From positions 1 to 43,008 of the forward strand of contig CAVGMK010000111.1 in assembly GCA_963630135.1 (NCBI GenBank): 43,008 nt of DNA, given 5' to 3'. Positions 5,597-28,986 of this stretch are shown in pieces (the stretch's first letter is position 1; the number at the start of each line of letters is the position of its first letter). The position numbers and the translations under genes were made by a program. This DNA is from Oscillospiraceae bacterium. Lineage in GTDB: Bacteria > Bacillota > Clostridia > Peptostreptococcales > Anaerovoracaceae. The notes beneath the pieces were generated by a model. That model made no database searches. It was not told the DNA's origin and saw only the letters and a program-made list of their open reading frames with translations.

Positions 5597-5608
5597 GGCG
5601 GTGATGTA

Positions 5609-6513: not shown

Positions 6514-6515
6514 TA

Positions 6516-6563
6516 TTTAGATCTAAAAAAATATATTTACATTTAGATCTAAATATGCATAAT
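6516..6563 (+). promoter_or_regulatory. Two TTTAGATCTAAA palindromes flanking the putative -35 of the HNH-DGQHR operon
   Basis: Palindromes at 6516-6527 and 6541-6554 (ATTTAGATCTAAAT); TTTACA at 6536-6541 and CATAAT at 6558-6563. Confidence 0.6.
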
Positions 6564-6584
6564 GTGTAATAAAGGAGGAGAACG

Positions 6585-7064: not shown

Positions 7065-7076
7065 GAGGTTCGGGAA

Positions 7077-8174: not shown

Positions 8175-8353
8175 ATTAAAGATAACATCCATATAATGAT
8201 GTAAATTTGGGAATGAATATAAATCAACTATCTATATTCTGCTCAATTCAACAAATACCATGTTATCAGGTAAGGAAACGCTATAGCTTGATTCAATATC
8301 ATACAGTAGTACTATTCTGGCCTTATTGAACTTAATGCATACGGAGGTATGAA

Positions 8354-10057
8354 ATGTCAATCCCTGAGATAGGCTTAAAGGCAAGAAATTCGGATTTGCT
8401 TGCAACGCTGAACAGTTTACTTGAAAATTGGGAAACGGAGGTTGTCGAATTTAAAGAGGCGAATAAAGATTACGATAAAGGAAAAATAGGGCAGTATTTT
8501 TCTGCTATCAGTAATGAGGCCAACCTCAAGGGTTTACAATATGGCTGGCTTGTATTTGGCGTACGGAATAAAGATCGGCAAATCGTTGGTTCTGATTATC
8601 GCAACAAAAAAGGGTTAGATACATTAAAGCTAGAAATTGCAAACGGGACGACTGGTGGCATTTCCTTTATTGAAATATACGAAGTCCATCCCGTTGTGAA
8701 TGATGAAGAAAAACGCGTTGTAATGTTCCAAATTCCGGCTGCGGCAACCGCAATTCCAACGGGGTGGCATGACCATTTTTATGGCAGAAATGGAGAATCT
8801 CTAGGTGCGTTGTCTGTAGAAGAGCTGGATCGAATTCGTGGTCAGGAAAAGAAGGATTGGTCAAAGCAAACAATTTCTGGTGCAACGATAGATTGCCTTA
8901 ACAAGGATGCGATTGCTCTAGCACGACAAAAATACAAAGAGAAGATGAATAGACCTCACATCACTGAAGAAGTCGATAAAATGACGGATGAGCAATTTTT
9001 AACGAAAATCAAGCTGATAATAGATGGTCGATTGACTAATGCGGCAATGACGTTGCTCGGAGATGAAGATTACGATTATCTATTTAATACACCACCAGAA
9101 ATTTCGTGGAGACTTTTTGACTCTAAAGATTGTGTAAAGGATTATTCTATTATCAAAGTGCCATTTATCACCGCTGGCGAACGTGTTTTTGAAAAAATTA
9201 GAAACTTGACGTATCGATATATGCCCAGTCGTTTGACGTTATTCCCTACCGAAATACAGCAATATGATGTGTGGTTACTTCGGGAACTGATGAACAACTG
9301 TATTGCTCATTCAGATTATACAATCGGCGGTCGGATATACGTAAACGAATTTGAGGACAAATTGATTCTGACGAATCCGGGGACATTTCTTCCAGGAAGT
9401 ATCGAACCCGTTTTACAACCAAGCTATAATCCGCCTTTTTATCGGAATCAGTTACTGGCAGAAACTATGGTTAAGCTGAATATGATTGATACACAAACAA
9501 TGGGCATACGCAAGGTTTTCCGGATTCAACAGGAAAGATTTTTTCCATTGCCTGATTATAACTTATCCATTGCTCAACAGGTAGGCGTAACCGTCTATGG
9601 AAAAGTATTGGATGAGAATTATTCTCGTGTACTATTTGAGAATCCGGATTTTGATATATCAACAGTGTACCTAATCGATCGAGTACAGAAACATGCACCA
9701 ATTTCAAAAGAGGCAATTAAAATGCTTCGTAAACTCGGAGTGATTGAAGGGAAGATGCCCAATATCTACATTTCTGCCAAAATAGCAGAGAGCACTGATA
9801 TGAAGGCTCAGTATGTGAAAAATAGGGGGCTTGATGATGAGTATTATAAGAGGCTGATTATCAGTTACCTTGAAATTTATGAAAAAGGGAAGAAACAAGA
9901 TTTCATTGAGCTTTTGGCAGATAAATTACCAGATGTGATGGATGAGAAGCAGAAGAGAAGCAAGATTAAAAATCTTCTTAGTAGCTTAAAGAACGAAGGG
10001 AAAATAATAACAGATTCGGATAATAAAAGATTGGCTAATTGGATATTGCGGAAATGA
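8354..10057 (+). CDS. Schlafen/AlbA_2 + HATPase_c_4 (RecG-C-like) + C-terminal wHTH protein
   Basis: ETEVVEFKEA, SAISNEA, WLVFGV (AlbA_2); LRELMNNCIAHSDY, NPG.F, YRNQLLA...IDTQTMGI (HATPase_c_4); C-terminal wHTH. Confidence 0.85.
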   Translation: MSIPEIGLKARNSDLLATLNSLLENWETEVVEFKEANKDYDKGKIGQYFSAISNEANLKGLQYGWLVFGVRNKDRQIVGSDYRNKKGLDTLKLEIANGTTGGISFIEIYEVHPVVNDEEKRVVMFQIPAAATAIPTGWHDHFYGRNGESLGALSVEELDRIRGQEKKDWSKQTISGATIDCLNKDAIALARQKYKEKMNRPHITEEVDKMTDEQFLTKIKLIIDGRLTNAAMTLLGDEDYDYLFNTPPEISWRLFDSKDCVKDYSIIKVPFITAGERVFEKIRNLTYRYMPSRLTLFPTEIQQYDVWLLRELMNNCIAHSDYTIGGRIYVNEFEDKLILTNPGTFLPGSIEPVLQPSYNPPFYRNQLLAETMVKLNMIDTQTMGIRKVFRIQQERFFPLPDYNLSIAQQVGVTVYGKVLDENYSRVLFENPDFDISTVYLIDRVQKHAPISKEAIKMLRKLGVIEGKMPNIYISAKIAESTDMKAQYVKNRGLDDEYYKRLIISYLEIYEKGKKQDFIELLADKLPDVMDEKQKRSKIKNLLSSLKNEGKIITDSDNKRLANWILRK

Positions 10058-10608
10058 GTTTAGTTAATTGATTAGCCAATCCGAGAACCAGATATCTCGC
10101 AACCCAATTGAAGAAACACTGATTCCCAATTCAGGAAACCGCGCCTATTGAGCAATCATAGTGCCGTAATTGGATTGGCGAATTGGATAATTCGTAGTAA
10201 ATTTAGCCAATCATTTAACCAATCCGAGAACCAGATATCTCGCAACCCAATTGAGGAAACACTGATTCCCCAATTCAGAAAATCACGTCAAAGACCGGAT
10301 TGGTCAGATACTGCCTGACCAATTGAGCAAACAGATAATGCCGCAACTGGATTGTCTAATTGGCTAATTCTTGATAAATTTAACCAATCATTTAGCCAAT
10401 CCGAGAACCAAACATCTCGCAACCGAATTGGGGAAACACTGATTCCCCAATTCAGAAAACCTCGTCAAAGGCCGGATTGGTCAGACACTGCCTAGCCAAT
10501 TGAGCAAACAGATAATGCCGCAACTGGATTGGCTAATTGGCTAATTCTTAATAAATTTAACCAATCATTTAACCAATCCGAGAGCCTGATAACTCGCAAC
10601 CGAATTGC
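10029..10608. repeat. Tandem array of ~3.3 hairpin-rich units (periods 143, 177, 177 bp)
   Basis: Anchor CCAATCCGAG at 10076, 10219, 10396 and 10573; internal IRs such as GAATTGGGGAA-acactga-TTCCCCAATTC and ATTGGTCAG...CTGACCAAT. Confidence 0.9.
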
Positions 10609-10660
10609 CAGCTTGAAATATATCTTGAACCATATAAATTATCAACGGAGGAACCCACCC

Positions 10661-13495: not shown

Positions 13496-13609
13496 GCCGA
13501 TTCCCCATTATAATCTCAATCAGATTATATCCCTGGGATGATGGGATCGTAGGTTACAAGGAACGTTAGAACAACAATAATCATGTTAACTTTAAGGGAG
13601 AAATTATCA

Positions 13610-14347
13610 ATGAACAAGGAAAACGTGAAGAAAGAAAAGAAAGAATTGCTGACACAGGAACAGATGCAGGCTATCTTGAATTCGTGCTATCAGAAGGCTG
13701 TTTCTGGAATTCCCCATGTAAGTCCATCAATTGATGAATTGGCAGAAGAATATCTTCAGAAGTACAGTACTCCGGAGGAGGCTGCCAAGCAGATGCTGAA
13801 GAATCAGATTACGAAATGCACAACATCTGGATTCATTACTGGCCTTGGGGGAGCAATTACCCTGCCGGTTGCCATTCCGGCCAATATTAGTAGCGTGCTG
13901 TATGTTCAAATGAGAATGATAGCGGCAATGGCGTATATGGTTGGATTGGATCTGAAGAGTGACCATGTCCAGACGCTTTCGTATGCTTGCTTGGCAGGAG
14001 TGTCCGTAAATGGCGTTGTCAAGAAAGCAGGAGTGGCGGCTGGACAGAAGCTTACAACTAGCATGATTCAGAAAATCCCGGGAGCAGTATGTGTCAAAAT
14101 CAATCAGGCAGTTGGTTTTCGCTTCATAACTAAATTTGGACAGAAGGGGATCATCAATCTTGGTAAAATGGTGCCGGTGGTAGGCGGTGCTATTAGTGGC
14201 GGCTTTGATTTCGCGGAGACGAGGGCAATTGCAAACAGAGCATATAAAATGTTCTTTGAAGGTGATTTTGGCAGCGGATTTACTTCTGATGCCCAGGATG
14301 ACGACTGCATTGACGTGGATTTTGAGGATGTAGACATCGAGAAATAA
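13610..14347 (+). CDS. EcsC family protein
   Basis: SGFITGLGGAITLPVAIPANISSVLYVQMRMIAAMA...GKMVPVVGGAISGGFD pattern. Confidence 0.85.
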   Translation: MNKENVKKEKKELLTQEQMQAILNSCYQKAVSGIPHVSPSIDELAEEYLQKYSTPEEAAKQMLKNQITKCTTSGFITGLGGAITLPVAIPANISSVLYVQMRMIAAMAYMVGLDLKSDHVQTLSYACLAGVSVNGVVKKAGVAAGQKLTTSMIQKIPGAVCVKINQAVGFRFITKFGQKGIINLGKMVPVVGGAISGGFDFAETRAIANRAYKMFFEGDFGSGFTSDAQDDDCIDVDFEDVDIEK

Positions 14348-14463
14348 TCTGCCCCCGCCGGAAGTCCCGGCAGGAAGCAATTTATTTTTGGCCGGGGGAA
14401 GGCAAGGCAAAGATAAAAGTTTGAGGAAGAAGGAGAGTAGAGAACGCTACTGCTGATATTTGA

Positions 14464-14501
14464 TCCGATGAAAACGACATACCACTGTCGTTTTCATCGG
14501 A
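14464..14501. repeat. Perfect 16-bp inverted repeat, 6-nt loop (operator or hairpin)
   Basis: TCCGATGAAAACGACA-taccac-TGTCGTTTTCATCGGA, followed by a TATAAT-like sequence. Confidence 0.8.
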
Positions 14502-14691
14502 GTCGTTCTATATAATATAGTCAACCATTTCCCTAAGTTGCCCTCATCGGGTTTGATGAGAAGTGCTGGCTAACCATTATCGACACGGTAACCGTCCATT
14601 CCGAGGTACGGCAAGGCGGATACGAAGATGCCGGGCCGGGATACGGTGACGCAAGGTTAGATATAAGGATAGAGAAGAAGGAGAGTAGAGG

Positions 14692-15471
14692 ATGCTGATG
14701 ATATTGATTTTCGCGGCGAGTCTGGCGCCGGCGGTGCTGGTGTTCCTGTGGCTGAAGAAGCGCAAGGCTGGGGATGGATTATACCGGGAGATTTGCAATC
14801 GAGCGCTGGGGCGCGGGGCTGTCCTGTGTGCGGCGCTGGTGTTGGTGGTGTCGGGCGTGCTGTATGGGGGCGCGCTGGTGCTGCGGATGCTGGGCGTCGG
14901 GGCGGTGGCCCGGGCGGTCTATTATAATTTCATCGTGCTGGCGCTGGCGGAGGAGCTGGTGAAGTACCGGGTGATGCGGGGGCTGCTGAAGAAGCATCCG
15001 TATCCGTATTCGTGGCTGGATGTGACCACGATGATGATGATTGTCGGAATCGGGTTCGAGCTGACGGAGTCGGTTGCCTACGCGATTGGGGCGAATGCCG
15101 GGATGATGCTGGTGCGGGGCTTCACCGCCATGCACTGCGGGTATGGATTCATCATGGGGTATTTCGTCGGCAAAGGGATGAAGACGGGGCGGAAGAAGTA
15201 TACGTGCCTCGGGATTCTGGTGCCGTTCCTGCTGCATGGGGCGTACGACTGCTGCCTGAGCGAGGAGCTGGGGGCGATTAGCGAGAGTTTCGGCGTGGTA
15301 TCGCTGGCGCTGGCGGCGGTAGCGGTGGTGACGCTGCTTGTGGCGATTGTGCACGTTCGCCGGGCCGGGAAGCAGGCGGAGTATACGGAGGCGCTGGAGG
15401 CTGGGACGCTGCCTGCTGAGGCATTGTCTGCTGAAACGTCTGCGGAGACGATTGCTGAGACAGCGGAATAA
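14692..15471 (+). CDS. prsW: PrsW family glutamic-type intramembrane protease
   Basis: Multiple TM helices with AEELVK, GIGFELTES, AMH and LLHGAYD motifs. Confidence 0.85.
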   Translation: MLMILIFAASLAPAVLVFLWLKKRKAGDGLYREICNRALGRGAVLCAALVLVVSGVLYGGALVLRMLGVGAVARAVYYNFIVLALAEELVKYRVMRGLLKKHPYPYSWLDVTTMMMIVGIGFELTESVAYAIGANAGMMLVRGFTAMHCGYGFIMGYFVGKGMKTGRKKYTCLGILVPFLLHGAYDCCLSEELGAISESFGVVSLALAAVAVVTLLVAIVHVRRAGKQAEYTEALEAGTLPAEALSAETSAETIAETAE

Positions 15472-15571
15472 ATTAGATGGGCGGAAATTGGCGGAATCTG
15501 GCTTGTCTAATTTTGCTGTAAGCGTTGGAAATAAAGGAATTGGCGAAAATTAGATATGGGCTTTGTGCGGG

Positions 15572-15724
15572 GATGCGCGGAAGCAAGGGCGCAAGGGGCT
15601 CGTGCTGACCTGCAAGGAGAAGCTGATTCCGTATTATGCGAAATTCGGATTCGTGGATGAGGGCGTGTCCGATAAGTCGACGCATGGAAATGTCGTATGG
15701 CATCAGATGCGGCTGAAGTTCTGA
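15572..15724 (+). pseudogene. C-terminal remnant of a GNAT acetyltransferase
   Basis: Manual translation DARKQGRKGLVLTCKEKLIPYYAKFGFVDEGVSDKSTHGNVVWHQMRLKF*; in-frame stop at 15551 upstream and no credible start. Confidence 0.75.
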
Positions 15725-15731
15725 GGACGGG

Positions 15732-15818
15732 ATGGCTGTGGCTCAGGAGCTGGCAGAGAAATATCGGCAGACGTATCCGAGAAGGACTGCGCTCTGGGAT
15801 GAGCTGAGCGGAATATAA
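15732..15818 (+). pseudogene. C-terminal remnant resembling SWIM-zinc-finger-associated proteins
   Basis: MAVAQELAEKYRQTYPRRTALWDELSGI* resembles the recurrent ...YPRRxALxxEL terminus of that family (recalled, not searched). Confidence 0.45.
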
Positions 15819-15861
15819 AGAAGCTACTTATACGAGGAGTTAGGAAGGAGAATCAATACTT

Positions 15862-16536
15862 ATGGGAGAATATTATCGCTGGGTAAATGTTGATAAAAAA
15901 GAGTATCTTTGTCCTAACGACTTTGATTATGGCAGCAAACGGCGGGAGTCCTCCGGAAGAGGAAATGAAGTACTCTGTGCGCTCCGTGAAATGATATCAA
16001 GAGAATGGTCTGGAGACCATATTTTCTGGATGGGGGATGAGAAATTGATACCGGATGCGTCGAATAACGACGCCCTTCAGCTTCTGTATGCACAAACTGT
16101 CGAAGAGGAATGTCCGGGAGACGGATTTGATACGGTATGTGAAACATATCGAGATATATCATGCCTCTTCAAAACTGCGGAAACAGTGGTTCGAGAGGAA
16201 ATCGGATTCTATCTGGAGAGCGTTAGGAAAAATGAGTTTCACGAAAGAAATGAGTATGGAATTAACATCGAAAGACCTTTCGAAGGCCTTTTCCTGAGAA
16301 AAGGTAGAGATTTTCGCTATACCATTAACCATACAAAGCGGGTGTATTACACGTTCGAAGAAACTAAAATGATTGGTGATACCGGCTATATATATGATGA
16401 TACAGATCCACTCCTGTCGCTCATGGCATTTGGCAGAATCATCGAAACAGGGGACTGGGTTGGAGATATTATTGGAATTTCTGACGAGAAACCCGAAGAA
16501 TATGAATTGTTGGAAGAAATACACTTCACCGTGTGA
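15862..16536 (+). CDS. Conserved hypothetical protein
   Basis: 224-aa ORF with AAGGAG RBS. N-terminal MGEYYRWVNVDKKEYL and internal YTINHTKRVY / W.GD motifs suggest a duplicated small domain. Confidence 0.75.
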   Translation: MGEYYRWVNVDKKEYLCPNDFDYGSKRRESSGRGNEVLCALREMISREWSGDHIFWMGDEKLIPDASNNDALQLLYAQTVEEECPGDGFDTVCETYRDISCLFKTAETVVREEIGFYLESVRKNEFHERNEYGINIERPFEGLFLRKGRDFRYTINHTKRVYYTFEETKMIGDTGYIYDDTDPLLSLMAFGRIIETGDWVGDIIGISDEKPEEYELLEEIHFTV

Positions 16537-16553
16537 CAAGGAGACACAACAAT

Positions 16554-17078
16554 ATGACAGTACGACAGGCAACACAGGCAGACTTAGACAGAATAGAGCA
16601 GATTTACGAGAGCGTTCACGATGGCGAGGAACAGGGTCTGACGACAGTGGGCTGGATTCGGAATGTGTATCCGACCCGGAAGACGGCAGAGGATGCGCTG
16701 GATCGGCAGGATCTGTTCGTCATGGAAGATGACGGAAAGCTCGTGGCGGTAGCGGTGATCAATCAGATTCAGGTGGATGTATATGAGCAGGTGCCGTGGA
16801 AACACCTAGCATCGGATAGCGAGGTCATGGTGCTTCATGCGCTTGCTGTGGATCTGGCAGAAGCCGGGAATGGATACGGCAAAGCCTTCGTGGCATTCTA
16901 CGAGGAGTACGCCAGGGAGCACGGCTGCATGGAGCTTCGCATAGACACGAACGTGCGGAACACCAGGGCGCGGCACTTGTATCAGAAGCTGGGATACAAG
17001 GAAGAAGGCGTTGTGGGGTGCGTCTTCAACGGCATCCCGGATGTGCAGCTGGTGTGCATGGAGAAATATCTGGGGTAG
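16554..17078 (+). CDS. GNAT family N-acetyltransferase
   Basis: VRQAT..DL, LHALAVD...AGNGYGK motif A, RIDTNVRNTRARHLYQKLGY motif B. Confidence 0.9.
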   Translation: MTVRQATQADLDRIEQIYESVHDGEEQGLTTVGWIRNVYPTRKTAEDALDRQDLFVMEDDGKLVAVAVINQIQVDVYEQVPWKHLASDSEVMVLHALAVDLAEAGNGYGKAFVAFYEEYAREHGCMELRIDTNVRNTRARHLYQKLGYKEEGVVGCVFNGIPDVQLVCMEKYLG

Positions 17079-17126
17079 TGGCTCTGGCGGAACATTTGAC
17101 AGAACAAATCAAAGCAATTTGATGCA

Positions 17127-17156
17127 GACGGCACGGAAACCCTCGTGCCGTTTTCT
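17127..17156 (+). terminator. Intrinsic terminator
   Basis: ACGGCACG...CGTGCCGT stem followed by a T-rich tail. Confidence 0.7.
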
Positions 17157-17180
17157 CCTATTACTGCCTATTCGGATACT

Positions 17181-17271
17181 TTATCTGCATATTTTTTTAA
17201 GAAGTATGTGCAGATAATTCGAATAACGACTTATTTTTCTGCACATAATTTGCTATAATTATGTGCAGAAA
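17181..17271 (+). promoter_or_regulatory. Fic promoter with two inverted-repeat operators
   Basis: Perfect 15-bp IR TTTCTGCACATAATT / AATTATGTGCAGAAA centred on an extended -10 (TGcTATAAT); second IR TTATCTGCATAT / ATGTGCAGATAA shares the half-site. Confidence 0.75.
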
Positions 17272-17283
17272 GGATGGTGCCGT

Positions 17284-18330
17284 ATGAGAAAATTCGATTA
17301 CACATTTCTGAATAACGGTTTGCTGCCTGCAAACCTTGTGAACCTCACTTCCAATATTGCGGCGCTCAAAACGATGGCTGGTGTGCGCAAAGACGAATAT
17401 ACGCAGATTTTTACGGCGCTGGAAGCTGTCGCAAAGGTGCAGTCCATCAAGAGTTCCAATGCCATTGAGGGCATTGTGACCAGCGATGAGCGTATCGCAG
17501 CCATTGTCAATCAGAACAGCGCCCCGCTGAACCACAACGAGGCGGAAATCGCTGGGTACAGAGATGCACTGAATGAGATTCATTTGGGCTATGAACATAT
17601 GGACTTCCGGCAGAGCGATATTCTGCGGTTGCACGAAATGATGATGAGCTTTGCGGGCTACGAGTACGGCGGGCAGTACAAGACGGACGACAATGTGATT
17701 CTGGAAATTGACGCAGACGGAAATCGTCGTGTTCGTTTCCGCCCTATGCCTGCAAGCGAAACCCCGGATGCAATGGAGCAGTTGGAACTTGCCTATCTGG
17801 ATGCCAGAAGTGATGCGAATATCAATCAGCTTCTCTTGATTCCTTGCGTTATTCTGGATTTTCTCTGCATCCACCCGTTCCGGGATGGCAACGGCAGAAT
17901 GTCCCGCCTGCTCTCGTTGTTGCTGTTGTACAAAAACGGCTTTGACGCCGGTAAATATATGTCCTTTGAGGAGCAAATCAACAACTATAAGGCATATTAT
18001 TACGAGGCTCTGCGGCAGTCCTCGGAAGGATGGGAAACGAATGAGAACTCTTATTTCCCATTTATTGAGAACTTCCTCTCCACCCTCTATATGTGCTATA
18101 AGGAACTGGATAAGCGGTTTGCAGTGGTACATGGCAAGAAGATCACGAAGAAGGTCCGTGTGGAGGCAACCGTTCTGAACAGCTTGGCCCCGCTATCCAA
18201 AGCAGAAATTTGCAGGATTCTCCCCGACATCAGCCCTACGACTGTCGAGGCTGTCCTCGGTGCAATGGTTAAGACCGGTTCGGTGAAGCGAATCGGCGCA
18301 GGACGGGCGACGAGATATATTAGAGCGTAA
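17284..18330 (+). CDS. Fic family protein with C-terminal wHTH
   Basis: SSNAIEG, intact HPFRDGNGRMSR motif, C-terminal SKAEI...ISPTTVE...L...G...RIG.GR.TRY wHTH. Confidence 0.93.
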   Translation: MRKFDYTFLNNGLLPANLVNLTSNIAALKTMAGVRKDEYTQIFTALEAVAKVQSIKSSNAIEGIVTSDERIAAIVNQNSAPLNHNEAEIAGYRDALNEIHLGYEHMDFRQSDILRLHEMMMSFAGYEYGGQYKTDDNVILEIDADGNRRVRFRPMPASETPDAMEQLELAYLDARSDANINQLLLIPCVILDFLCIHPFRDGNGRMSRLLSLLLLYKNGFDAGKYMSFEEQINNYKAYYYEALRQSSEGWETNENSYFPFIENFLSTLYMCYKELDKRFAVVHGKKITKKVRVEATVLNSLAPLSKAEICRILPDISPTTVEAVLGAMVKTGSVKRIGAGRATRYIRA

Positions 18331-20365: not shown

Positions 20366-21388
20366 ATGGAAGACAGGAAAGACGAAATGTTGGCCAATGC
20401 TGAAGAGGAAGTGAAGGACGTCGCATTCGATGTGGAAGGCGCTGAAGCTGCAGAGGAAGCGGTAGCCGAAGGTGCGGAAGCGGCTGTTGATGGCGCGGAA
20501 GCTGCGGCGGAGAATGCGGAGTGCGAATGCGGAGAAGAAGCAAATGACGCCGCTGCAGAGGATGAAGAAGCCGGTGAAGCTGCTGAGGACGCCGATGCGG
20601 AAGACGAAGATGCTGACGAAGATGTAGCCGAGGATTCTGCGGATGAGTCATCCGAACCGGGCGCCGGTTCGCGTTTCATGGGTGCTGCCATGAAAGCGAT
20701 GGGATCCGGAGCGCGGAGCTTGAAGCGTGCTGCCTCGGAAGCGTCTAAGGAGCAGAACTTCAAAGCCAGCGAGCTGGCTTTCATCAAGGATACCGTGCTG
20801 ACGCTGAGCCCGGAGAATTTCGAGAAGCTTCGCGATACGTTGTTCGAAGACTGTCTCCGATTCTGGTTCATTCCGAAGGACGATATCACACCGGAAGTGC
20901 TGGCGGAGAAGCTGTATGATTATTTCTACAATACGCTTGCCGTGACGGGCGCGCCGTTCGACAAGCAGGTGTTCCAGTACATCAAGAGTGTGTCTGACCT
21001 GGTAGACATGCACATCGAGCAGGCGAAAGAGCTGGAGGATGGTACCCAGGAGGAAGCGCCGCGGGCACGCCGCTTCTACGAGAAGGCCCAGGAGATTAAG
21101 GAGAGCCGCTCCGCGTCCACGAATGATATTCTCGAGTTCTCGCGCCTGATGTTCTGTCTCTACGAGGCAACGCTGCGGGACCGCCTCAACAAGATTCAGG
21201 ACTTCGATTACTCCGTGGACGTCATCGACCCGGCCAAAATCCTGGATGCCATGAAGAAGGAGACCGTCGAGGGCATGCTCGGCATGAAGCGCAAGGTCTT
21301 CAACCTCGAAGGCACTTGCACGCAGGACATCAGCACGATGATTATCGCGGCAATCTCGCTGTATAAGATTGCGGAGGATCGGGCGTAG
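20366..21388 (+). CDS. Hypothetical protein, acidic low-complexity N-terminus + helical domain (paralog of next gene)
   Basis: ~95-aa E/A/D-rich N-terminus; shares TVLTL.PENF..LRD, TPEV.AEK.YD.F, FSR.MFCLY, DFDYSV, EGMLG, MIIA...LYKI.EDR with 21429..22190. Confidence 0.8.
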   Translation: MEDRKDEMLANAEEEVKDVAFDVEGAEAAEEAVAEGAEAAVDGAEAAAENAECECGEEANDAAAEDEEAGEAAEDADAEDEDADEDVAEDSADESSEPGAGSRFMGAAMKAMGSGARSLKRAASEASKEQNFKASELAFIKDTVLTLSPENFEKLRDTLFEDCLRFWFIPKDDITPEVLAEKLYDYFYNTLAVTGAPFDKQVFQYIKSVSDLVDMHIEQAKELEDGTQEEAPRARRFYEKAQEIKESRSASTNDILEFSRLMFCLYEATLRDRLNKIQDFDYSVDVIDPAKILDAMKKETVEGMLGMKRKVFNLEGTCTQDISTMIIAAISLYKIAEDRA

Positions 21389-21428
21389 GCAAGAATTAAT
21401 TGAGGATAATGAGGAAAGGGGAGAGCAA

Positions 21429-22190
21429 TTGCTGCTTGGTATGGTGATGGATAAAGATGTTAAGAAGGTAGCTGCGGATGCCGGCGTTAAAGCACAGGAG
21501 AAGCTGGAAGCTGCTGTAGGAGCGGTAAAGAAAGTGAGACCGAAGAAAAAAATTAAGACCAGAAGACAGACGTTCCTGGAGGAGACGGTATTGACGCTTG
21601 GCCCGGAGAATTTTGCAAATCTTCGAGATGCGCTGTTGGAGGGCTGCATCAATGTCCGTTTTATGGAGGACGAAGCTGTTACCCCGGAGGTTATGGCCGA
21701 GAAGATATATGACCACTTCGACAAGACGGTACAGAAGACGGGCCAGACATTCGGCCAGCAACTGATGGATTTTGCGGATAAGATTTCGCTCATTCTAAGT
21801 GGCTATGTTACGCAAAGAATCCCCGGCGAGAACGATAAGGATGAAGGGGAGATTTCCCGTGCGTACAAATATTATCTGAAGGCGACGGCAATTAAGGGAA
21901 AGAAAGAGCTATCGACGGAAGATGTTCTCAGCTTCTCGCGAATTATGTTCTGTCTCTATGCCGAAGCAAGAAAGGGGAAAGCTCACAAAATCCTGGATTT
22001 CGATTACTCCGTGAAGGCTGTTCATCCGGCAGAGCTGATAGAAATGCTTAGGAAAGAACAGACCGAAGGAATGCTTGGTATCTCCCGTCCGGTATTCGAC
22101 TTGGATGACTGGTATGGCATCGATGCCAACTCAATGATTATCGCGATTATCATGTTGTACAAGATTGTGGAAGATAGAGTGGAGGAGTAG
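21429..22190 (+). CDS. Hypothetical protein, paralog of the preceding gene
   Basis: Colinear similarity over ~200 aa to 20366..21388; TTG 21429 after GGGGAG (ATG 21441/21447 are alternatives). Confidence 0.8.
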   Translation: MLLGMVMDKDVKKVAADAGVKAQEKLEAAVGAVKKVRPKKKIKTRRQTFLEETVLTLGPENFANLRDALLEGCINVRFMEDEAVTPEVMAEKIYDHFDKTVQKTGQTFGQQLMDFADKISLILSGYVTQRIPGENDKDEGEISRAYKYYLKATAIKGKKELSTEDVLSFSRIMFCLYAEARKGKAHKILDFDYSVKAVHPAELIEMLRKEQTEGMLGISRPVFDLDDWYGIDANSMIIAIIMLYKIVEDRVEE

Positions 22191-22194
22191 AGCT

Positions 22195-23214
22195 GTGGCG
22201 AAAGATGTAATTGCCAAGGTGCTGGAAGAATTAGAAAAATACCAGAACGACAAAGGTGTAATTGAGATTGTTACACGTTACAAAGATGGGAAGAAAAAAG
22301 GGGCATATCAAGAATTTATTAACGTCTCCATCGGTGACTTTAAAGAACAGGTACAAGAAGCCCTCGCCCAGACGGATCTGCTCAACCAGAACCTCGCCCA
22401 GGCAGGCAAAATCCTCAAGCTCCAGAATCTGGGCCTCGTCATGAATGGCCTGAACCTCTGCGCAACCTGCGTAGGCTTCGCCATCATGTACAAGAAGCTG
22501 AACGAAATCAGCGAGGAGATTGGCCAGCAGCTCAGCCGCCTGCAGAAACAGATGCAGAAGCAGGCCGGCGTCTGGACCGAATATGAATTCCGTAAGATTG
22601 TCGCGGACTATAGCGATATGCTGGACTGCCGCAGGAAACAGAAACCGTACTCGGAAGAAGCCATGCGCTTGCTGGTGGATCAGGAGTACAACATGCTGCA
22701 GCTGCTGCTGGACGTTCTCAGGAAGGACATCTCGGGCGACCATAGAGCAACGATTGAAGCTATTTTTAGCCTCCTCTCCATGTACACGCAGACGCTGATG
22801 TTCTTCGACGAGACCTATTACTTCAACAACCGCGAGGCCCTTCAGGGTCAGGATGTATGGCACAGCTCGCACATCAAGTGGGAGAGTGTCTTCGACGAGC
22901 TCGCGTCGCCGTGGTTCGAGAAATTCCTGCAGGATTATGCGGTCTTCGAGACTGACCTCGACACGAAGGGTGTGGATGTGTTCTACCTGGCGCTGGAGGA
23001 GCAGGCGGCTGACATGAAGCAGAACCTGCGGAGCAACCAGGAGCTGATTGCGGCGATGGACAGCCCGGATGAGCTGACGGCGGTGAAGACGGCGATTGAT
23101 CAGCAGATTCGAACCGAGCTGGAGGAGAGTGTCCGGGAAGCCTTCGATGGCAATGACGACCCGGAGATGCAGGCCGCACGCGACGAGTTGCTTAAGGCGG
23201 TTGCGACGGCGTAA
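22195..23214 (+). CDS. Hypothetical helical protein with hydrophobic segment and coiled coil
   Basis: GTG start after GGAGGAG; LGLVMNGLNLCATCVGFAIMY hydrophobic stretch followed by heptad-like KKLNEISEEIGQQLSRLQKQMQ. Confidence 0.8.
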   Translation: MAKDVIAKVLEELEKYQNDKGVIEIVTRYKDGKKKGAYQEFINVSIGDFKEQVQEALAQTDLLNQNLAQAGKILKLQNLGLVMNGLNLCATCVGFAIMYKKLNEISEEIGQQLSRLQKQMQKQAGVWTEYEFRKIVADYSDMLDCRRKQKPYSEEAMRLLVDQEYNMLQLLLDVLRKDISGDHRATIEAIFSLLSMYTQTLMFFDETYYFNNREALQGQDVWHSSHIKWESVFDELASPWFEKFLQDYAVFETDLDTKGVDVFYLALEEQAADMKQNLRSNQELIAAMDSPDELTAVKTAIDQQIRTELEESVREAFDGNDDPEMQAARDELLKAVATA

Positions 23215-23228
23215 CAGGGGGCAATATC

Positions 23229-24818
23229 ATGGATCTCGAAGTGAAAAGCCAATTGGACTCCCTGCTCCTTGCTACACGCTCGCTGGCGCCTACATCTTCT
23301 GACGACGGCCAAAAGCAAGTTTGCCAAGCCTTGGTTTCCGACCTCACGGATTTCATTCGGTTCATCTCCAAAGACGATGCCGTTCAGCGAACTTCTTGGT
23401 TCTGCGAAATGTATCTGCCGACGGATCTGTCGGAATCGCTGAAGAAGATGGATTTCGGCAATCTGGCTAATCTGGCGAAACCGGTGAATCAGGTAGAGTT
23501 GGTAGAACGAACAACATCCTCGAATCAGAAGGCGAAGGTCGAGTCCACGGATAACGGGCATCTTTCGGCAATCCCGGAGACGTTGCGCCTCCTAGTGAAT
23601 GCTGATAAGCGCAATCTCCCTATTGGGCGTAGTAGCTTATCGAAGCAATATATTTCGCTCTTGGAAGAAATGGGGAAGTCCTATTGTTTCAGCAAATACG
23701 ATAAGAGCAAGATTGACATTCAGCGCCTGACGGAGTATATCCAGACGATGAGTTGTTACGCTACAGAAAGTCTGAAAGAGGAGATGCCGAGTGCCACGAG
23801 GAATCAGAGCAGGAAAAGCTCGGAATCCGATTCGGAGAATGGGAAAATAATCCATATTTCTTCTGCAAGCAATTCGGCAGCAGACAGCTCGAAGATATCG
23901 AAATCGGGAAGCGCGGAAGCGACTACAGAATCAGATAACCAGGCGGAATCCGTAGAACCGGAGGAAACCCTGGAAGAATTGATGGAGAAGCTGAATAGCC
24001 TTACTGGCCTTGCCGGCGTGAAGAAAGAAATCTCGGATCTGATGAATCTCATCCGCATTAATAACATCCGGAAGGAACGGAATATTCCGACTGCGGATGT
24101 CTCGAAACACCTGGTATTTCTGGGAAATCCGGGGACGGGTAAAACCACCGTGGCCAGATTGGTTTCCAAGATATATAAACAACTGGGTGTCTTAGAGAAG
24201 GGGCATCTGGTGGAAGTGAGCCGTACGAATCTGGTTGCCGGTTATGTCGGTCAGACGGCACAGAAGACGCAGGAGAAAATCGATGAAGCCATGGGTGGCG
24301 TTCTTTTCATCGACGAGGCGTATACGCTGAACAAGGAGGGGAATGACTTCGGACAGGAAGCTATCGATACCCTGCTTAAAGAGATGGAGGACAAACGGAA
24401 TCAGTTCGTCGTCATTGTTGCGGGCTACCCGAAGCCAATGGCGGATTTCCTGAATTCCAATCCGGGATTGGAATCCCGATTCAATCAGAAAATTACTTTT
24501 GACGACTATAATGCAGAAGAACTCCGCTCTATCTTTGATTCCATGTGTGAGTCCCAGGGGCAGATGCTGTCGGATGACGCCTCGCAGTTCGTGGACGAAT
24601 ATTTGCAGGCGCTGTGTGCAAACAAACCGGAGAATTTCGCCAATGGACGTGAGATGAGAAATCTCTTCGAGAAGGCCTACCGGAAGCAGGCCAATCGTCT
24701 GGATGCGTTAATCACAGAGCGAGCCGAATCGGGCGCAGAGATTACCAGCGAGGAACTGACGACACTTACGGCGGAGGACTTGGACGTGGTCGGCTTGTAT
24801 ACTGGTAGCGATTTCTGA
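23229..24818 (+). CDS. SpoVK/CbbX/EccA-type AAA+ ATPase with uncharacterised N-terminal domain
   Basis: LTGLAGVKKEI, HLVFLGNPGTGKTTVAR, LVAGYVGQTA, VLFIDEAY, NPGLESRF, FANGREMRN. Confidence 0.9.
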   Translation: MDLEVKSQLDSLLLATRSLAPTSSDDGQKQVCQALVSDLTDFIRFISKDDAVQRTSWFCEMYLPTDLSESLKKMDFGNLANLAKPVNQVELVERTTSSNQKAKVESTDNGHLSAIPETLRLLVNADKRNLPIGRSSLSKQYISLLEEMGKSYCFSKYDKSKIDIQRLTEYIQTMSCYATESLKEEMPSATRNQSRKSSESDSENGKIIHISSASNSAADSSKISKSGSAEATTESDNQAESVEPEETLEELMEKLNSLTGLAGVKKEISDLMNLIRINNIRKERNIPTADVSKHLVFLGNPGTGKTTVARLVSKIYKQLGVLEKGHLVEVSRTNLVAGYVGQTAQKTQEKIDEAMGGVLFIDEAYTLNKEGNDFGQEAIDTLLKEMEDKRNQFVVIVAGYPKPMADFLNSNPGLESRFNQKITFDDYNAEELRSIFDSMCESQGQMLSDDASQFVDEYLQALCANKPENFANGREMRNLFEKAYRKQANRLDALITERAESGAEITSEELTTLTAEDLDVVGLYTGSDF

Positions 24819-24914: not shown

Positions 24915-25211
24915 TCATGCGATACGAATTCCTTTCTTCATCACAGATTCGTAGAAAGGAGTTCCCGTATTGACCTCCCGTATTTCAAATACATCAGCAT
25001 TACGACCACTCATTTCACGCAGATCCTCTGCCGGCGCAAAGATATCGTGAGGAATGAAGTCTTTTCCTCCAATTACGATGATATCGATGTCTGACTTAGG
25101 CGAGGCTTCACCGCGCGCATAGGAACCGAAGAGCAGTGCATACTCCGCATGGTAGCGCTTCAGCAGTTCTTTCACGATAATTTTGATTTCATCTGGAGCC
25201 AGCGTGTCCAT
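24915..25211 (-). CDS. Minimal nucleotidyltransferase (MNT/MntA-like antitoxin), no HEPN partner
   Basis: LFGSYARGEASPKSDIDI (GSx10DxD); ATG 25211 after AAAGGAGG. Confidence 0.85.
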   Translation of the reverse strand: MDTLAPDEIKIIVKELLKRYHAEYALLFGSYARGEASPKSDIDIIVIGGKDFIPHDIFAPAEDLREMSGRNADVFEIREVNTGTPFYESVMKKGIRIA

Positions 25212-25397
25212 GGTGATACCTCCTTTCTCTATGTTACTATCATTATATCTGAATGTCTGACATTGAAAAAGCACAACAAATAATCCTCATAATTGACACA
25301 ATATATAGCGGCTATGTGTTGAGGCAAGACGGTATATATTGTATAATGCAAATCGAAGTTAGGGCTTTGACTAGTTGATGCAGGTAGTTAACTGACT

Positions 25398-25940
25398 TCA
25401 ATTTAGTATGATTGAAAGTTTTCGCCCATCAAAATCATTGCCCCAACCATTACGTTCGGTGAATTTTGAAAATGCAACAGAATGATAATCAGGGAGGGAG
25501 ATGTTGTGCTTGAGAAGAATAGATTCGGTTTCACTAATTATTCCTAGGGATTCAGAACCATCGCCGATGATGGTTCCTTCATACACTGACGCCATTTCAA
25601 AAGGTTTGTTTAATATGAAGTTAACTGAATCTTCAGAATCATCTTCTCGGCCTTCTGTGATTCCGTGGTATAGATTTTCTATCTCGGTGTATTCAGAGAG
25701 CGTCATGCCAGAAGAAAGTTCCTTGTCATAGCTATCGTATTGAAACAATACATCTGGAATATAATTGCTATACATTTCTGGCCAATCACTCCAGTTCGTA
25801 GAAGTGGCTGCCCAGAGTTTTTCAGCCAATAAAGTCCAATCTCTATTTGGATAAGCTGATGTGAGATACTTCTCAACACACATGATTACGTAGGCCATGC
25901 GACCATTCATTGAAATAGCATTAAAGCGTGTGTCCATCAT
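25398..25940 (-). CDS. Putative immunity protein for the upstream deaminase toxin
   Basis: 180-aa acidic ORF translationally coupled (ATGA overlap) to the deaminase; function inferred from position only. Confidence 0.6.
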   Translation of the reverse strand: MMDTRFNAISMNGRMAYVIMCVEKYLTSAYPNRDWTLLAEKLWAATSTNWSDWPEMYSNYIPDVLFQYDSYDKELSSGMTLSEYTEIENLYHGITEGREDDSEDSVNFILNKPFEMASVYEGTIIGDGSESLGIISETESILLKHNISLPDYHSVAFSKFTERNGWGNDFDGRKLSIILN

Positions 25941-26446
25941 TGTTTGCCTCCATTTCCCCAGCCGGAATAATTTTCAGAGATTTTTCCCCGAAATGCATAA
26001 GTGCAATTTTCGCATGCTGCTTTATATTTTCCGAACTGTTTTTTTGTTGTATGTATTGTTGTGATGTGTAGATTCTCAAGCTTAGCACCATCGTTTAATG
26101 CACGGTTTATGGCATCTACCTCTGCACAATTTCCTACAGGATATTTATTTAAAGAATGTTTTGGAAGAATGCCAGTATGAGTGGAGTCCCCAAAGAGAAA
26201 CGGATTGCGTACATACCCATCTTCTCGATACCCTGCGTTTCGACCATAATAAAATTTATGAGTTGCTTGGTCAAATGCAACACAGGCAGTATTGAAATTC
26301 TTCCTTGCTTTGCCAGTAAGCTCGTTGAATTGTTGTATTGCCCATTCACGCACAGATATATACATAAATGCTTGGATATCCGTACGGTGTATGTGGGGGT
26401 CGAATCCTGAAGTGCCATCGAAAAGACCGCTTGCTACCTTGCTCAT
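25937..26446 (-). CDS. YwqJ-like putative deaminase toxin with short N-terminal leader
   Basis: GNCAEVDAINRAL...ACENC (CxE...CxxC zinc deaminase motif); ATG 26446 follows GGGAGG (ATG 26452 is an alternative). Confidence 0.8.
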   Translation of the reverse strand: MSKVASGLFDGTSGFDPHIHRTDIQAFMYISVREWAIQQFNELTGKARKNFNTACVAFDQATHKFYYGRNAGYREDGYVRNPFLFGDSTHTGILPKHSLNKYPVGNCAEVDAINRALNDGAKLENLHITTIHTTKKQFGKYKAACENCTYAFRGKISENYSGWGNGGKQ

Positions 26447-26448
26447 AA

Positions 26449-27177
26449 TCATTTCCTCCCGGCAAAAGCCTGACTGGTCTGGCTTGGAAAGGAAACAATT
26501 TTGATTCCGGCTTTCCGGAGACGATTGAAACATTCGTAGTTCGATGAACCGTAAATTATAATTGTGTGCGGTTGCAAAGTTTCGACCATATGAAAGAGCC
26601 CGTTCTCAAATAGAGGTCTGTTTTTCAATTGGTGAATACGGCTTGCAACGGTTCCGATAGCTACCATGCTATTGCGAGGATTGCTATCAAAACAGTAAGT
26701 CCAGGTTTCTTCTGTGCCCCAACGTACATTACTGACTACTGGAATACCCAGTGAGCCTATCCAATAGCCGAAGCTATTCATTTTGTAGAAATTCATTCTT
26801 TTGATTGGGTCGGGGAAATCAGCATATGTTGAAAAATCTGGGGCAATGATACCTGCAAAATGCTGGATAATATCCAGAGCCTTATCAGGATATAACCAGA
26901 TGCTGTTTCTCTTTCCATCGAACTTTTGATCATCAATGTAGAAATGAATGAAGGCATCATGGTAATAGGATATATTGCCAGTCTTCATTTCTTTATTGTG
27001 AAGTGTTTTAGCTTCTGAATAGGAGATAAGTTGCTTGGGGATCTCTGTAGCCGTTGTTGGACAGAGCGGAAAATCGTTAGCGGAATATTGAGCGCCAATT
27101 AACATGTTGGCGTTCCAAATATCCTGTAATCCTGGCCTGTTTGAATTTATTTTAGCTTTTTTATATAAATGGTTCAA
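26449..27177 (-). CDS. DUF4417 domain-containing protein
   Basis: FIHFYIDDQKF, IAPDFSTY.D.P, SNVRWG.EE....CFD..P...VAIGT and IIIYG motifs as recalled for DUF4417; TTG start after GGGGG. Confidence 0.8.
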   Translation of the reverse strand: MNHLYKKAKINSNRPGLQDIWNANMLIGAQYSANDFPLCPTTATEIPKQLISYSEAKTLHNKEMKTGNISYYHDAFIHFYIDDQKFDGKRNSIWLYPDKALDIIQHFAGIIAPDFSTYADFPDPIKRMNFYKMNSFGYWIGSLGIPVVSNVRWGTEETWTYCFDSNPRNSMVAIGTVASRIHQLKNRPLFENGLFHMVETLQPHTIIIYGSSNYECFNRLRKAGIKIVSFPSQTSQAFAGRK

Positions 27178-27220
27178 TTCTTTGTCCCCCTTTTATAGAT
27201 TATTCAGATTCAGTAGCTAG

Positions 27221-27263
27221 CTGGTTCTGGCGCCTTGAAACAACTGGCTCTGTTCTGTACCAT
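27221..27263 (+). promoter_or_regulatory. Promoter of the Macro-TIR operon with CTGGYTCTG direct repeats
   Basis: TTGAAA(27235)-17nt-TACCAT(27258); CTGGTTCTG at 27221 and CTGGCTCTG at 27244. Confidence 0.5.
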
Positions 27264-27344
27264 AAATGTAACTTTTTTTTCAGGTAAAATCGTTCCCCCA
27301 GAGTTATGCTGCGGTTACTCTATTTAAGGAAGGGAGGAAAATAA

Positions 27345-28478
27345 ATGCCTAAATTATCAATGTTAACAAGAGAAATAAAGAAATATGCGAAAAATCCGAA
27401 CATATCGGAGGAGGATTTTTTGAATGCATTTTTAGACCCAGTCGTTGCGGTCGGTCATATCCATAATAAGATAGGTGGTAAATTTTATCTTAACAAAACG
27501 AGAACTAGCGACCTGATGAACGGTATTGACGATGTTCCTAAATCATTACGTGAAGTCTTGCCGATGATAAATCTTGAGGAAAAAATGATTGGCGACATGG
27601 AAAACTTTGTCTCTGATTACCTGAATTCAAACCATAAAGAAAAATTGAAGATACGATTGCATGAATTGCTGAATCAAGACGAAAATATCTCAAAAGCAGA
27701 CAAAGATAAGATAGGAAATGTGTCGTTAGAAAGTTTATTGGTAAAGCTATTACTTATCTCAATAGCTGAATCGAATAAGAATGAAAAACGAAGTAACGTT
27801 ATCTGGAAGAATGGCAGGAATTATGTTGAAGTTATTACAGGTGATTTGTTTAAATACGGATTTGGTAACCGAAAAAATACAAGGAATATTGTAGTCATAC
27901 CGGTTAATACGGCGTTTGATACGCATGTAACAAGAAAACTTGAAGAAGAATTATTCCCGTTGGTCTCAGAAACAACAATTCATGGGCAATGGCTAATACG
28001 CATGCAGAAGAGCGGCGTGTGTGAGGATGAGATTTATGAGAGAATTAGTACAAGCTTGCAAAGACAAGGGATTTCAAGTGTGGGACATGCGAGAAATTCA
28101 AAGGGAAGACAAAAAATATATCCAATAGGTTCTGTTGCGATTGTTGAAGAAAAAAACGCCAGTTATTTTCTGCTAGCGATTTCGGATTTTGATGAACATA
28201 ACGTTGCACATAGCACTGCCTCTAATATAGACATAGCGGTTGAAGCTCTCTTAGAAAGGTACAATGCTGTGGGTCAGGGATACAATTTATATCTGCCATT
28301 ATTGGGAACGGGAAGATCCAGAACAGGTTTATCTATTGAACTAGCGTTCGCTCTTTTAAGAAAGAGCTTTATGACACACGCCGACCTGATTCAAGGGCAA
28401 GTTATTGTGGTGATTAGACCGGAAGATAGCGAAGAAATTGACGTATTACGAAGATTGGAGAAAAAGCGTGATGTATAG
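27345..28478 (+). CDS. Thoeris ThsA-type Macro domain (DUF6430-like) protein with soluble N-terminal domain
   Basis: VITGDLF, IVVIPVNTAFDT, TIHGQ, YPIGS.A, FLLAISDFD, GQG..LYLPLLGTG.SR match ThsA Macro; first ~150 aa are hydrophilic with no TM helices. Confidence 0.8.
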   Translation: MPKLSMLTREIKKYAKNPNISEEDFLNAFLDPVVAVGHIHNKIGGKFYLNKTRTSDLMNGIDDVPKSLREVLPMINLEEKMIGDMENFVSDYLNSNHKEKLKIRLHELLNQDENISKADKDKIGNVSLESLLVKLLLISIAESNKNEKRSNVIWKNGRNYVEVITGDLFKYGFGNRKNTRNIVVIPVNTAFDTHVTRKLEEELFPLVSETTIHGQWLIRMQKSGVCEDEIYERISTSLQRQGISSVGHARNSKGRQKIYPIGSVAIVEEKNASYFLLAISDFDEHNVAHSTASNIDIAVEALLERYNAVGQGYNLYLPLLGTGRSRTGLSIELAFALLRKSFMTHADLIQGQVIVVIRPEDSEEIDVLRRLEKKRDV

Positions 28479-28986
28479 AACAAAAACTTATATCGCTGGG
28501 GATTGGAGCGGAGATAGGGACTTGATTAATCAATTATATTTATGGAATAGTAGCAATTACTGGTCATTAAATTTTGCTGATGCACATGAATTAGTCCAAT
28601 CTAGAGATACCAGTCGATATTGCACAATTAAAAGTTCGTTGACAGATAGACTTAATTCATCCAAGACATTTGTTTTAATTGTTGGAGAACAAACAAGGAA
28701 CCTCACTAAGGGCGGTTGCCAATACTGCGATAGCTATAATAGTTGGAATCAACGTTGTGTAAGAGGGTATAACGTTGATTATCGCAGTTACATAGAGTAT
28801 GAATGCGAAAAAGCAAAAAATGATGATTTGAAAATAGTGGTAATTTACAATTCGTGTAGCGTGAAAAAAGAAAAATGCCCAGAAATTCTTCGTGATACCG
28901 GTAATCATGTGAAGGGCTGTTATTTTGGGTTAGATCAGAAAATTTATTGGAATTACCAGGAGATTAGAGATGCAATCATGTTTTAA
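28471..28986 (+). CDS. thsB: Thoeris ThsB-like TIR domain (DUF1863/MTH538) protein
   Basis: RTKTYIAGD, FADAH, IK.SL..RL..SKTFVLIVG..T, SYIEYE (putative catalytic Glu), KIVVIYN; overlaps the Macro gene stop. Confidence 0.8.
   Translation: MYRTKTYIAGDWSGDRDLINQLYLWNSSNYWSLNFADAHELVQSRDTSRYCTIKSSLTDRLNSSKTFVLIVGEQTRNLTKGGCQYCDSYNSWNQRCVRGYNVDYRSYIEYECEKAKNDDLKIVVIYNSCSVKKEKCPEILRDTGNHVKGCYFGLDQKIYWNYQEIRDAIMF

Follow-up and report, generated by a model that had tools for sequence, protein, structure and literature searches.

A soluble Macro-TIR pair related to type II Thoeris, predicted to control transcription of a divergent DUF4417-toxin operon

In type II Thoeris, a ThsB TIR protein is paired with ThsA, whose Macro domain receives the TIR signal. 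The histidine carboxylate of the ligand is bound by R240 in B. amyloliquefaciens ThsA (bioRxiv 10.1101/2024.01.03.573942), ThsA Macro domains go from dimers to open-ended oligomers on ligand binding with all N-termini on one side (PMC11204291), and the membrane helices of the effector are essential (10.64898/2026.01.22.701046). Described Thoeris effectors kill or arrest the cell directly (10.64898/2025.12.03.692087). We analysed a 43,008-nucleotide stretch (the window) of an Oscillospiraceae bacterium (assembly GCA_963630135.1, contig CAVGMK010000111.1), in which positions 25398 to 28986 carry a Macro-TIR gene pair divergent from an operon encoding a DUF4417 protein, a toxin and an immunity-like protein. 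This locus shares with type II Thoeris the ThsA-type Macro fold with the histidine-binding Arg and the adenine-binding Asp kept (bioRxiv 10.1101/2024.01.03.573942; PMC11204291), a TIR clade that also serves transmembrane (TM) Macro effectors, and the same two-gene order. It differs in that the two membrane helices are replaced by a soluble 146-aa N-terminal domain (NTD), in a pocket Asn changed to His, and in a divergent toxin operon with a phased-repeat promoter, which is absent from the membrane-type loci examined. The original prediction, made from the letters alone, proposed that a soluble, possibly DNA-binding domain lets the TIR signal control the divergent operon. That proposal withstood those of its refutation tests that are open to computation and is supported by the lack of membrane helices, the linkage to DUF4417 and a conserved operator-promoter that travels with the NTD; the promoter geometry further points to an activator, and not merely to a switch. 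The features of the locus are as follows.

25398..25940, minus strand: immunity-like protein (180 aa, pI 4.4), of a family that pairs with the deaminase toxin
25937..26446, minus strand: short polymorphic toxin, leader plus YwqJ-like deaminase domain (169 aa, pI 9.1)
26405..26446, minus strand: N-terminal leader of the toxin, M-S-K-x-x-S-x-x-F-x-G-T-x-G, common to unrelated toxins
26449..27177, minus strand: DUF4417 protein with TTG start (242 aa; Pfam E 7e-35)
27235..27263, plus strand: possible sigma-70-type promoter of the Macro-TIR operon (9/12 consensus match; weak)
27265..27270, minus strand: predicted -10 element TACATT of the DUF4417-toxin-immunity promoter (TAnnnT at a fixed distance from the repeats)
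27289..27324, no strand: predicted operator of three direct repeats (GTT starts at 27292, 27303 and 27314; 11-bp phase)
27345..27782, plus strand: soluble all-helical NTD, residues 1-146, predicted DNA-binding activator domain (AlphaFold2 pLDDT 93.7)
27783..28478, plus strand: ThsA-type Macro domain that is predicted to receive a His-ADPR-type signal (best structural matches 8r66 and 8v6q)
28471..28986, plus strand: ThsB-type TIR protein with a Cys-rich insert, predicted signal synthase (171 aa; PADLOC PDLC00427 E 3e-77)

All five open reading frames (ORFs), the two divergent operons and the 167-bp intergenic gap were found as first described, tight coupling of the genes was seen in both operons, and a GC content of 38%, which is lower than that of the window (49%) and of the genome (52%), bears out the AT-rich character of the block. 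A Pfam scan of the five ORFs gave ThsA_Macro, ThsB_TIR, DUF4417 and, below its cut-off, a YwqJ deaminase, and left the immunity-like gene unmatched. The start of the toxin gene was set at 26446, giving 169 aa, and not at the longest-ORF start at 26533, because the conserved leader and a ribosome-binding site are located there.

The intergenic DNA provides the strongest evidence in this analysis. Loci were gathered from GTDB genomes, metagenomes and a sample of the window's class, and three further copies of the window locus and two further copies of the G400 locus were left out of the counts. Of 34 loci, 30 have three GTT-initiated repeats in an 11-bp phase ahead of the Macro gene, whereas 500 shuffles gave a mean of 0.1 and at most 2. 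When the alignment was anchored on these repeats alone, a minus-strand -10 element facing DUF4417 emerged from it at a fixed distance: its A and T were invariant in 31/31 automatically anchored loci, and TAnnnT was present at that distance in 33/34 loci, three of them anchored by hand (background 1.7%). The first repeat starts 21 nt from the -10 element and overlaps the -35 slot, which reads AACGAC or a variant; a TTGACA-like -35 was found in none of the 34 promoters. The specific repeat pattern occurs once in the window's genome (G000), and the repeats were found in 0/11 membrane-type ThsA loci and before 0/40 DUF4417 genes without an NTD neighbour (for three of these, less than 150 nt was examined). 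In L009, where the Macro-TIR operon lies downstream and convergent, the repeats and the -10 element remain before DUF4417, the NTD gene having neither in front of it, a natural experiment that places the operator with the DUF4417 promoter and not with the NTD gene. In SARP- and PhoB-type promoters, direct repeats 11 bp apart replace a proper -35 at a fixed -10 distance; the window promoter resembles these in its phased repeats, its fixed -10 distance and its lack of a proper -35, and differs in its repeat sequence, its 21-nt spacing and an NTD without a winged-helix/OmpR-type match. The transcript from the plus-strand promoter of the Macro-TIR operon would cross the repeats; this promoter call is weak, as a generic promoter scan gave 13 sites versus 12.5 by chance.

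The same promoter geometry recurs in a second, unrelated defence system. In some Bacillota the same NTD stands at the effector position of Lamassu/ABC-3C systems (LmuA with CTD6 or CTD11), and 7/10 NTD-CTD11 Lamassu candidate loci (6 distinct) have the same repeat/-10 geometry, with other repeats (TTTGC or CTCCGC) that face divergent sigma-70-region-4 genes. No match to the pattern describing this geometry occurred in the control loci (627 kb), and G000 (3.9 Mb, both strands counted) had 7. Together with the control loci and L009, this recurrence indicates that the repeats track the NTD and not DUF4417, TIR or Macro. The window locus differs from Lamassu/ABC-3C in having no ABC ATPase or LmuC gene, and the cell-killing effectors described for that system, which LmuA proteins carry at the NTD's position, are enzymes and not activators (bioRxiv 10.1101/2025.04.02.646746). 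The Lamassu/ABC-3C loci with the NTD as LmuA 'effector' (L102/L059, L137, L138, which equals L140, L139, L141 and L142) carry phased repeats and a -10 element facing sigma-70-region-4 and Bro-N genes, which are typical of mobile elements; Lamassu sensing there may switch on the element's own genes rather than kill.

The first 150 residues of the 377-aa Macro protein, originally described as hydrophilic with a helix-turn-helix (HTH)-like segment, contain no membrane helices in a hydrophobicity scan; the HTH-like part of the description was not confirmed by fold, Pfam or profile searches. Two hydrophobic segments (19-mers scoring at least 1.6) in this region were found in 0/120 family proteins (the query and 119 homologs; 5 with one, median maximum 1.0), compared with two or three segments in 10/11 membrane-type ThsA controls, all 11 of which reach 2.1-3.3. 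The sole hydrophobic stretch of the query (1.73, residue 123) corresponds, in the predicted structure, to the final helix of a soluble domain modelled with confidence. A protein search gave 236 relatives of the Macro protein, most of about 370 aa and aligned over their full length. Among 39 NTD-Macro loci other than the window, DUF4417 adjoins the NTD-Macro gene in 36 and is divergent from it in 35, so that the linkage, for which a neighbourhood survey had been proposed, is near-obligate; the three loci without an adjacent DUF4417 are two contig ends (L006, L022) and a broken gene (L016). Among membrane-type ThsA loci, DUF4417 was found in 0/12 within flanks of about 1.5 kb in most. Three loci with Macro fragments or contig starts (L011, L018, L039) were assigned neither to the NTD-Macro nor to the membrane-type group. 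The linked DUF4417 proteins fall at three separate places in the DUF4417 tree, namely the main clade, L027/L031 and L019 (branches are long and some joins unsure), and the L019 protein is sister to a second DUF4417 of the window's own genome. NTD-Macro systems are rare (2/400 genomes of the window's class), and named records with them belong to Lachnospiraceae, Oscillospiraceae, Eubacteriaceae, Acutalibacteraceae and other Bacillota. In the phage records and viral contigs searched no NTD-Macro gene was found, and a plasmid search gave five matches, to the Macro part only. The NTD-Macro gene is broken by a frameshift or stop in L007, L012, L013 and L019, where TIR, DUF4417 and toxin look intact, through decay or assembly error.

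ThsA_Macro (Pfam PF20016) covers residues 161-357 of the protein (E 3e-32), and the PADLOC ThsA models align to it only from residue 117-155 onward. In the structure model (pLDDT 92 for the whole protein) the C-terminal part matches 8r66 and 8v6q (E 1e-10; Z 22.5, rmsd 2.5, 201 residues aligned). The equivalents of R240 (R326) and of the adenine-binding D100 (D167) are kept in 101/101 and 100/101 NTD-Macro proteins, respectively, so that a His-ADPR-type signal may be presumed for this domain; the S194 equivalent is Ser or Ala, N133 is replaced by His, and Y277 is not kept in the family. The TIR protein matches Pfam ThsB_TIR (E 1.5e-8) and, over its full length, the PADLOC ThsB model PDLC00427 (E 3e-77), with 8v6t as its nearest solved relative, and follows NTD-Macro in 30/39 loci, the nine misses being seven contig ends, L016 and L026. 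Its catalytic Glu had been placed in the motif YIEYE: the second Glu, E111, is conserved in 39/39, and the first, E109, is variable. The TIR clade with the Cys-rich insert also adjoins membrane-type ThsA (L043-L047, L049, L051). Four cysteines around the insert (C62, C84, C87, C97) are conserved, possibly as a zinc site, and are common to the TIRs of membrane-type systems.

Modelled alone, the NTD folds confidently as an all-helical domain. A profile search of 1.84 billion proteins gave 402 NTD relatives, and in most of the 101 scanned the partner is ThsA_Macro, with ABC-3C CTD6 in 10 and CTD11 in one; judged by these fusions, the NTD appears to be a mobile domain coupled to different sensors. 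Other NTD fusions include a 991-aa protein, one with a membrane-helix C-terminus and several with C-termini that have no Pfam match (P0231, P0220, P0207, P0234, P0259). Residues K51, S55 and P65 are nearly invariant. Foldseek searches of the PDB and of viral model libraries gave no match to the NTD; in a fold search the CI N-terminal domain scored Z 2.7, and the OmpR-type winged helix was absent among the matches, although absence from that list does not exclude such a fold. HTH_3 was touched by only 1/30 members (Pfam, E 0.09). For an assignment as HTH, the ESM Atlas, a PDB sequence search, Pfam on 30 members, three fold searches and profile comparison with controls gave nothing firm, and the best PDB sequence match, RecX (E 5e-5), was judged a match of helical composition because no RecX fold appeared in the fold search. 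If its predicted role holds, the NTD is likely a new DNA-binding family, which some mobile-element Lamassu systems also employ as their 'effector'.

The regulated operon is likewise variable. The divergent deaminase-immunity operon of the original prediction is real, and its deaminase turned out to be only one among at least nine exchangeable toxins: 31 leader-bearing genes behind DUF4417 form nine unrelated clusters, the window deaminase being replaced by eight others, and Pfam names five of the clusters (YwqJ deaminase, PBECR1 below cut-off, Tox-GHH, Ntox50 and Ntox37). Toxin lengths range from 90 to 187 aa, and no secretion, export, uptake or delivery Pfam domain was found in those scanned. 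The window toxin matches the YwqJ deaminase with E 1.8e-4 (22 bits, under the cut-off of 25.9); two relatives pass the cut-off, and the CAE and CxxC motifs are invariant in 6/6 aligned sequences. The toxins share a 13-residue leader in which six positions are invariant in 18/18 aligned sequences (rows chosen for having the leader), with variants that carry Cys or Gly at position 2. Each toxin gene is followed by an acidic gene whose family tracks the toxin family. In the window this gene has no Pfam, PADLOC, NCBIfam or PHROG match; homologs lie directly after deaminase toxins in L001, L034 and the viral contig L060 (77, 61 and 33% identity, respectively), and its position, acidity and pairing with the toxin suggest a role in immunity. 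In L013 an Ntox50-type immunity gene stands without that toxin, and L015 has a second cassette behind a DUF4417 fragment, and also a PBECR1 remnant with its immunity gene.

DUF4417 is present in 51/399 genomes of the window's class. Thirty of these loci were fetched, and in most the gene is followed by one with a related Gly- or Ser-rich leader. IrrE/ImmA peptidase genes, with XRE genes before them, lie upstream of DUF4417 in 8 loci, and modules in L069 and L082 lie behind a phage transcription regulator; a DUF4417-toxin-immunity unit placed under different inducible controls fits transcriptional control at the window locus. Modules of DUF4417 and a Gly/Ser-leader toxin were common in the class (L070-L098); XRE-IrrE pairs, AAA_21 ATPase genes or a phage regulator precede them, and several of these toxins had no Pfam match. 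The label pre-toxin-TG for segments of some other DUF4417-linked toxins was dropped, as Pfam did not support it. The window's genome contains such a module at G000 contig C130:6214-9366 (an XRE gene, an HExxH peptidase-like gene, DUF4417, a Gly/Ser-leader toxin with a His-rich nuclease-like motif, and an acidic gene). On the viral contig L060 (154-5810), two leader-bearing toxin-like genes, immunity-like genes and DUF4417 lie on the strand opposite to the major tail and tail terminator genes. Within DUF4417, D83 and S116 are invariant (75/75 rows) and D114 is kept in 73/75; no solved relative was found by sequence, and a profile comparison with TGT was not significant (E 0.44), with D114 placed on a conserved TGT aspartate. 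A predicted complex of DUF4417 with the leader peptide scored 0.33 versus 0.00 for the best control, giving weak support; the runs agree in at least 39% of contacts with a partner pLDDT of at least 48. In the calibration the mark was reached by 116/157 solved and 2/215 mismatched pairs, and scores up to 0.60 included only 18 of the solved pairs and both mismatched ones. DUF4417 is probably an enzyme that would act on the leader or bind it. Type IV CBASS offers a precedent in which a TGT-fold protein binds a small-residue N-terminal extension of its partner (Cap10/CdnD; bioRxiv 10.1101/2025.04.06.647259); the window module differs in having no QueC-like gene and a toxin instead of a cyclase as the partner, and the profile test did not confirm a TGT-like fold of DUF4417.

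Taken together, these data make it probable, as far as sequence can tell, that the TIR signal drives Macro oligomerisation, which lets the NTD activate the divergent operon. The TIR protein would sense phage and make a His-ADPR-type nucleotide, as its family suggests; the Macro domain, whose pocket keeps the Arg and the Asp, would bind it and oligomerise like solved ThsA Macro domains; the oligomer would line up several NTDs on the 11-bp-phased repeats and thereby activate a sigma-A-type promoter, possibly also dampening the NTD's own gene; and DUF4417, the leader-tagged toxin and the immunity protein would be made. DNA-binding domains in place of membrane helices on a one-sided oligomer would suit cooperative binding to phased repeats beside RNA polymerase. 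That NTD-Macro is instead a repressor on the repeats, released by the TIR product, is improbable. The repeats do overlap the -35 slot, and IrrE-XRE pairs, which work by derepression, lie upstream of other DUF4417 modules. Ligand-released repressors such as NrtR and WYL factors also control many defence operons (PMC9503650). However, the repeats lie upstream of the core promoter, 34 promoters without a TTGACA-like -35 would need an activator more than a repressor, and ligand-driven Macro oligomerisation favours binding to tandem repeats (PMC11204291). Still less credible, and in our judgement very unlikely, is that NTD-Macro is the soluble killing effector of a two-gene Thoeris, with the DUF4417 operon a fellow traveller and the repeats serving another factor. 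The NTD's position, at which Lamassu LmuA proteins carry cell-killing effectors (bioRxiv 10.1101/2025.04.02.646746), its fold, which matches nothing solved, and the direct action of all described Thoeris effectors (10.64898/2025.12.03.692087) speak for it; set against these are an NTD that shows no conserved catalytic-looking set beyond E23, K51, S55 and N144, repeats found only near NTD genes and in two unrelated systems, and three DUF4417 lineages linked to the NTD. Several observations nevertheless weigh against activation by the NTD in response to the TIR signal. A fold search of 48,161 chains with the NTD reached a best Z of 3.7 and gave no known DNA-binding fold, the placement of residues 44-69 on the XRE recognition helix (P 0.0056) was no better than a control (TIR versus XRE, P 0.0057), and the NTD has no net positive charge (21 K+R, 22 D+E). 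H213 stands in 101/101 NTD-Macro proteins where ThsA has N133, and for this reason the ligand may differ from His-ADPR. In L026, NTD-Macro and DUF4417 are intact, yet no TIR match lies within 3.4 kb downstream. The promoter geometry is missing in 3/10 Lamassu candidates, and its pattern was written after the loci had been seen. The flanks of the control loci are short (about 1.5 kb in most), and the loci are related, some being near-identical (L002/L003/L025 and L031/L032), so that the counts overstate their independence. A covariation of NTD helix residue 53 with the repeat sequence (21/27 versus 0/6) was not counted, because it rests on a single change in the tree.

The proposed activation would end in a step that is the weakest of the series, in which DUF4417 recognises the leader and licenses or delivers the toxin, and two readings of the toxin's fate stand close to each other. 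The one we hold somewhat ahead, though short of probable, is abortive infection: DUF4417 frees or activates the toxin via its leader, the toxin acts in the infected cell, and the immunity protein buffers leakage. The small toxins without a recognised export or uptake domain, the RNase and DNase types among their families, which are suited to intracellular killing, and the defence-rich surroundings in the window (MmeI-type restriction enzyme, DGQHR, HNH, Schlafen-AlbA) agree with such suicide, but toxin and immunity protein come from one transcript with translational coupling, so that induction should protect the producer, and the orphan immunity gene of L013 and the replaced cassettes of L015 resemble between-cell toxin systems. 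In the other reading, which we regard as possible but rather doubtful, DUF4417 would couple the leader to phage DNA or heads, progeny virions would carry the toxin into the next cell, and the immunity protein would protect the producer. Phages show an enrichment of DUF4417 in the form of a ParB fusion of unknown function (bioRxiv 10.1101/2025.10.10.680097). Beside its tail genes, L060 has a DUF4417 of the same clade as that of the window locus, with the same deaminase toxin and immunity families, the L069 and L082 modules follow a phage regulator, both triggers (TIR and IrrE) would coincide with virion production, and the predicted DUF4417-leader complex, weak as it is, also points this way. 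On the other side, the TGT comparison was not significant, the viral DUF4417 genes scanned had no identified terminase next to them, and NTD-Macro genes were not found in the phage and viral collections. The complete Trojan-horse defence, in which a TIR alarm nucleotide acts through an activator with an apparently undescribed DNA-binding fold, and phage-borrowed DUF4417 joins the leader-tagged toxins to phage DNA or heads, with the result that progeny deliver a nuclease or deaminase to the next cell and die with it, is, as a whole, unlikely.

Signal-controlled transcription factors of defence operons include CapH/CapP and CRISPR Csa3, and CapK/CapS reportedly places a defence operon under signal-controlled transcription as well. 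Like the window system as proposed, NrtR and WYL factors put the transcription of an adjacent defence or toxin operon under a small-molecule or damage signal (PMC9503650). Unlike these factors, the window system would combine a dedicated TIR signal, a ThsA Macro sensor, an NTD without a solved fold and an activation geometry. With polymorphic toxin systems (Tox-GHH, Ntox50, Ntox37, PBECR1, YwqJ) the operon has in common exchangeable C-terminal toxins, acidic immunity proteins, spare cassettes and orphan immunity genes; it differs in having no recognised secretion domain, in its 13-residue leader and upstream DUF4417, and in an expression tied to an immune sensor. It looks like an apparently undescribed class of polymorphic toxins without a secretion domain. 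The locus lacks the membrane helices that define type II Thoeris, and no known toxin-delivery determinant was found in it; judged by family comparisons, the sensor half would be a Thoeris variant, and no family tested would take in its activator domain, its transcriptional output or the leader-toxin operon. The literature searched, which excluded subscription papers, gave no account of a TIR-controlled DUF4417-toxin system, and the main text of a Thoeris survey (10.64898/2025.12.03.692087) mentions no HTH, DUF4417, transcription, DNA-binding or toxin, although its Figure 1C or Table S1 may list the effector or lump it under type II. If true, bacterial TIR immunity would gain a new output, in which a transcription activator reads the TIR signal. 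According to that survey there is no enzyme-based assay for His-ADPR-type signals (10.64898/2025.12.03.692087), and a simple fluorescent reporter for them would follow from such an activator. The function of DUF4417, with its 51/399 genomes in the class, likewise becomes testable.

Other genes of the window also deserve mention. Downstream of the immunity gene, a lone MNT-type nucleotidyltransferase is encoded at 24915-25274 (minus strand), with no full HEPN partner ORF adjacent. In a four-gene operon at 20366-24818 (plus strand), possibly a defence or secretion module, two genes encode similar acidic proteins without a family; the other two encode a 349-aa protein in which 64 residues match JukB weakly (E 6e-10) and an AAA ATPase resembling SpoVK/EccA. 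The region 5501-18330 resembles a defence island, with genes for AbiEi, HNH, DGQHR/DndB-like and Schlafen-AlbA-RecG-like proteins, an MmeI-type restriction-modification enzyme, EcsC (PDC-S29), PrsW and Fic.

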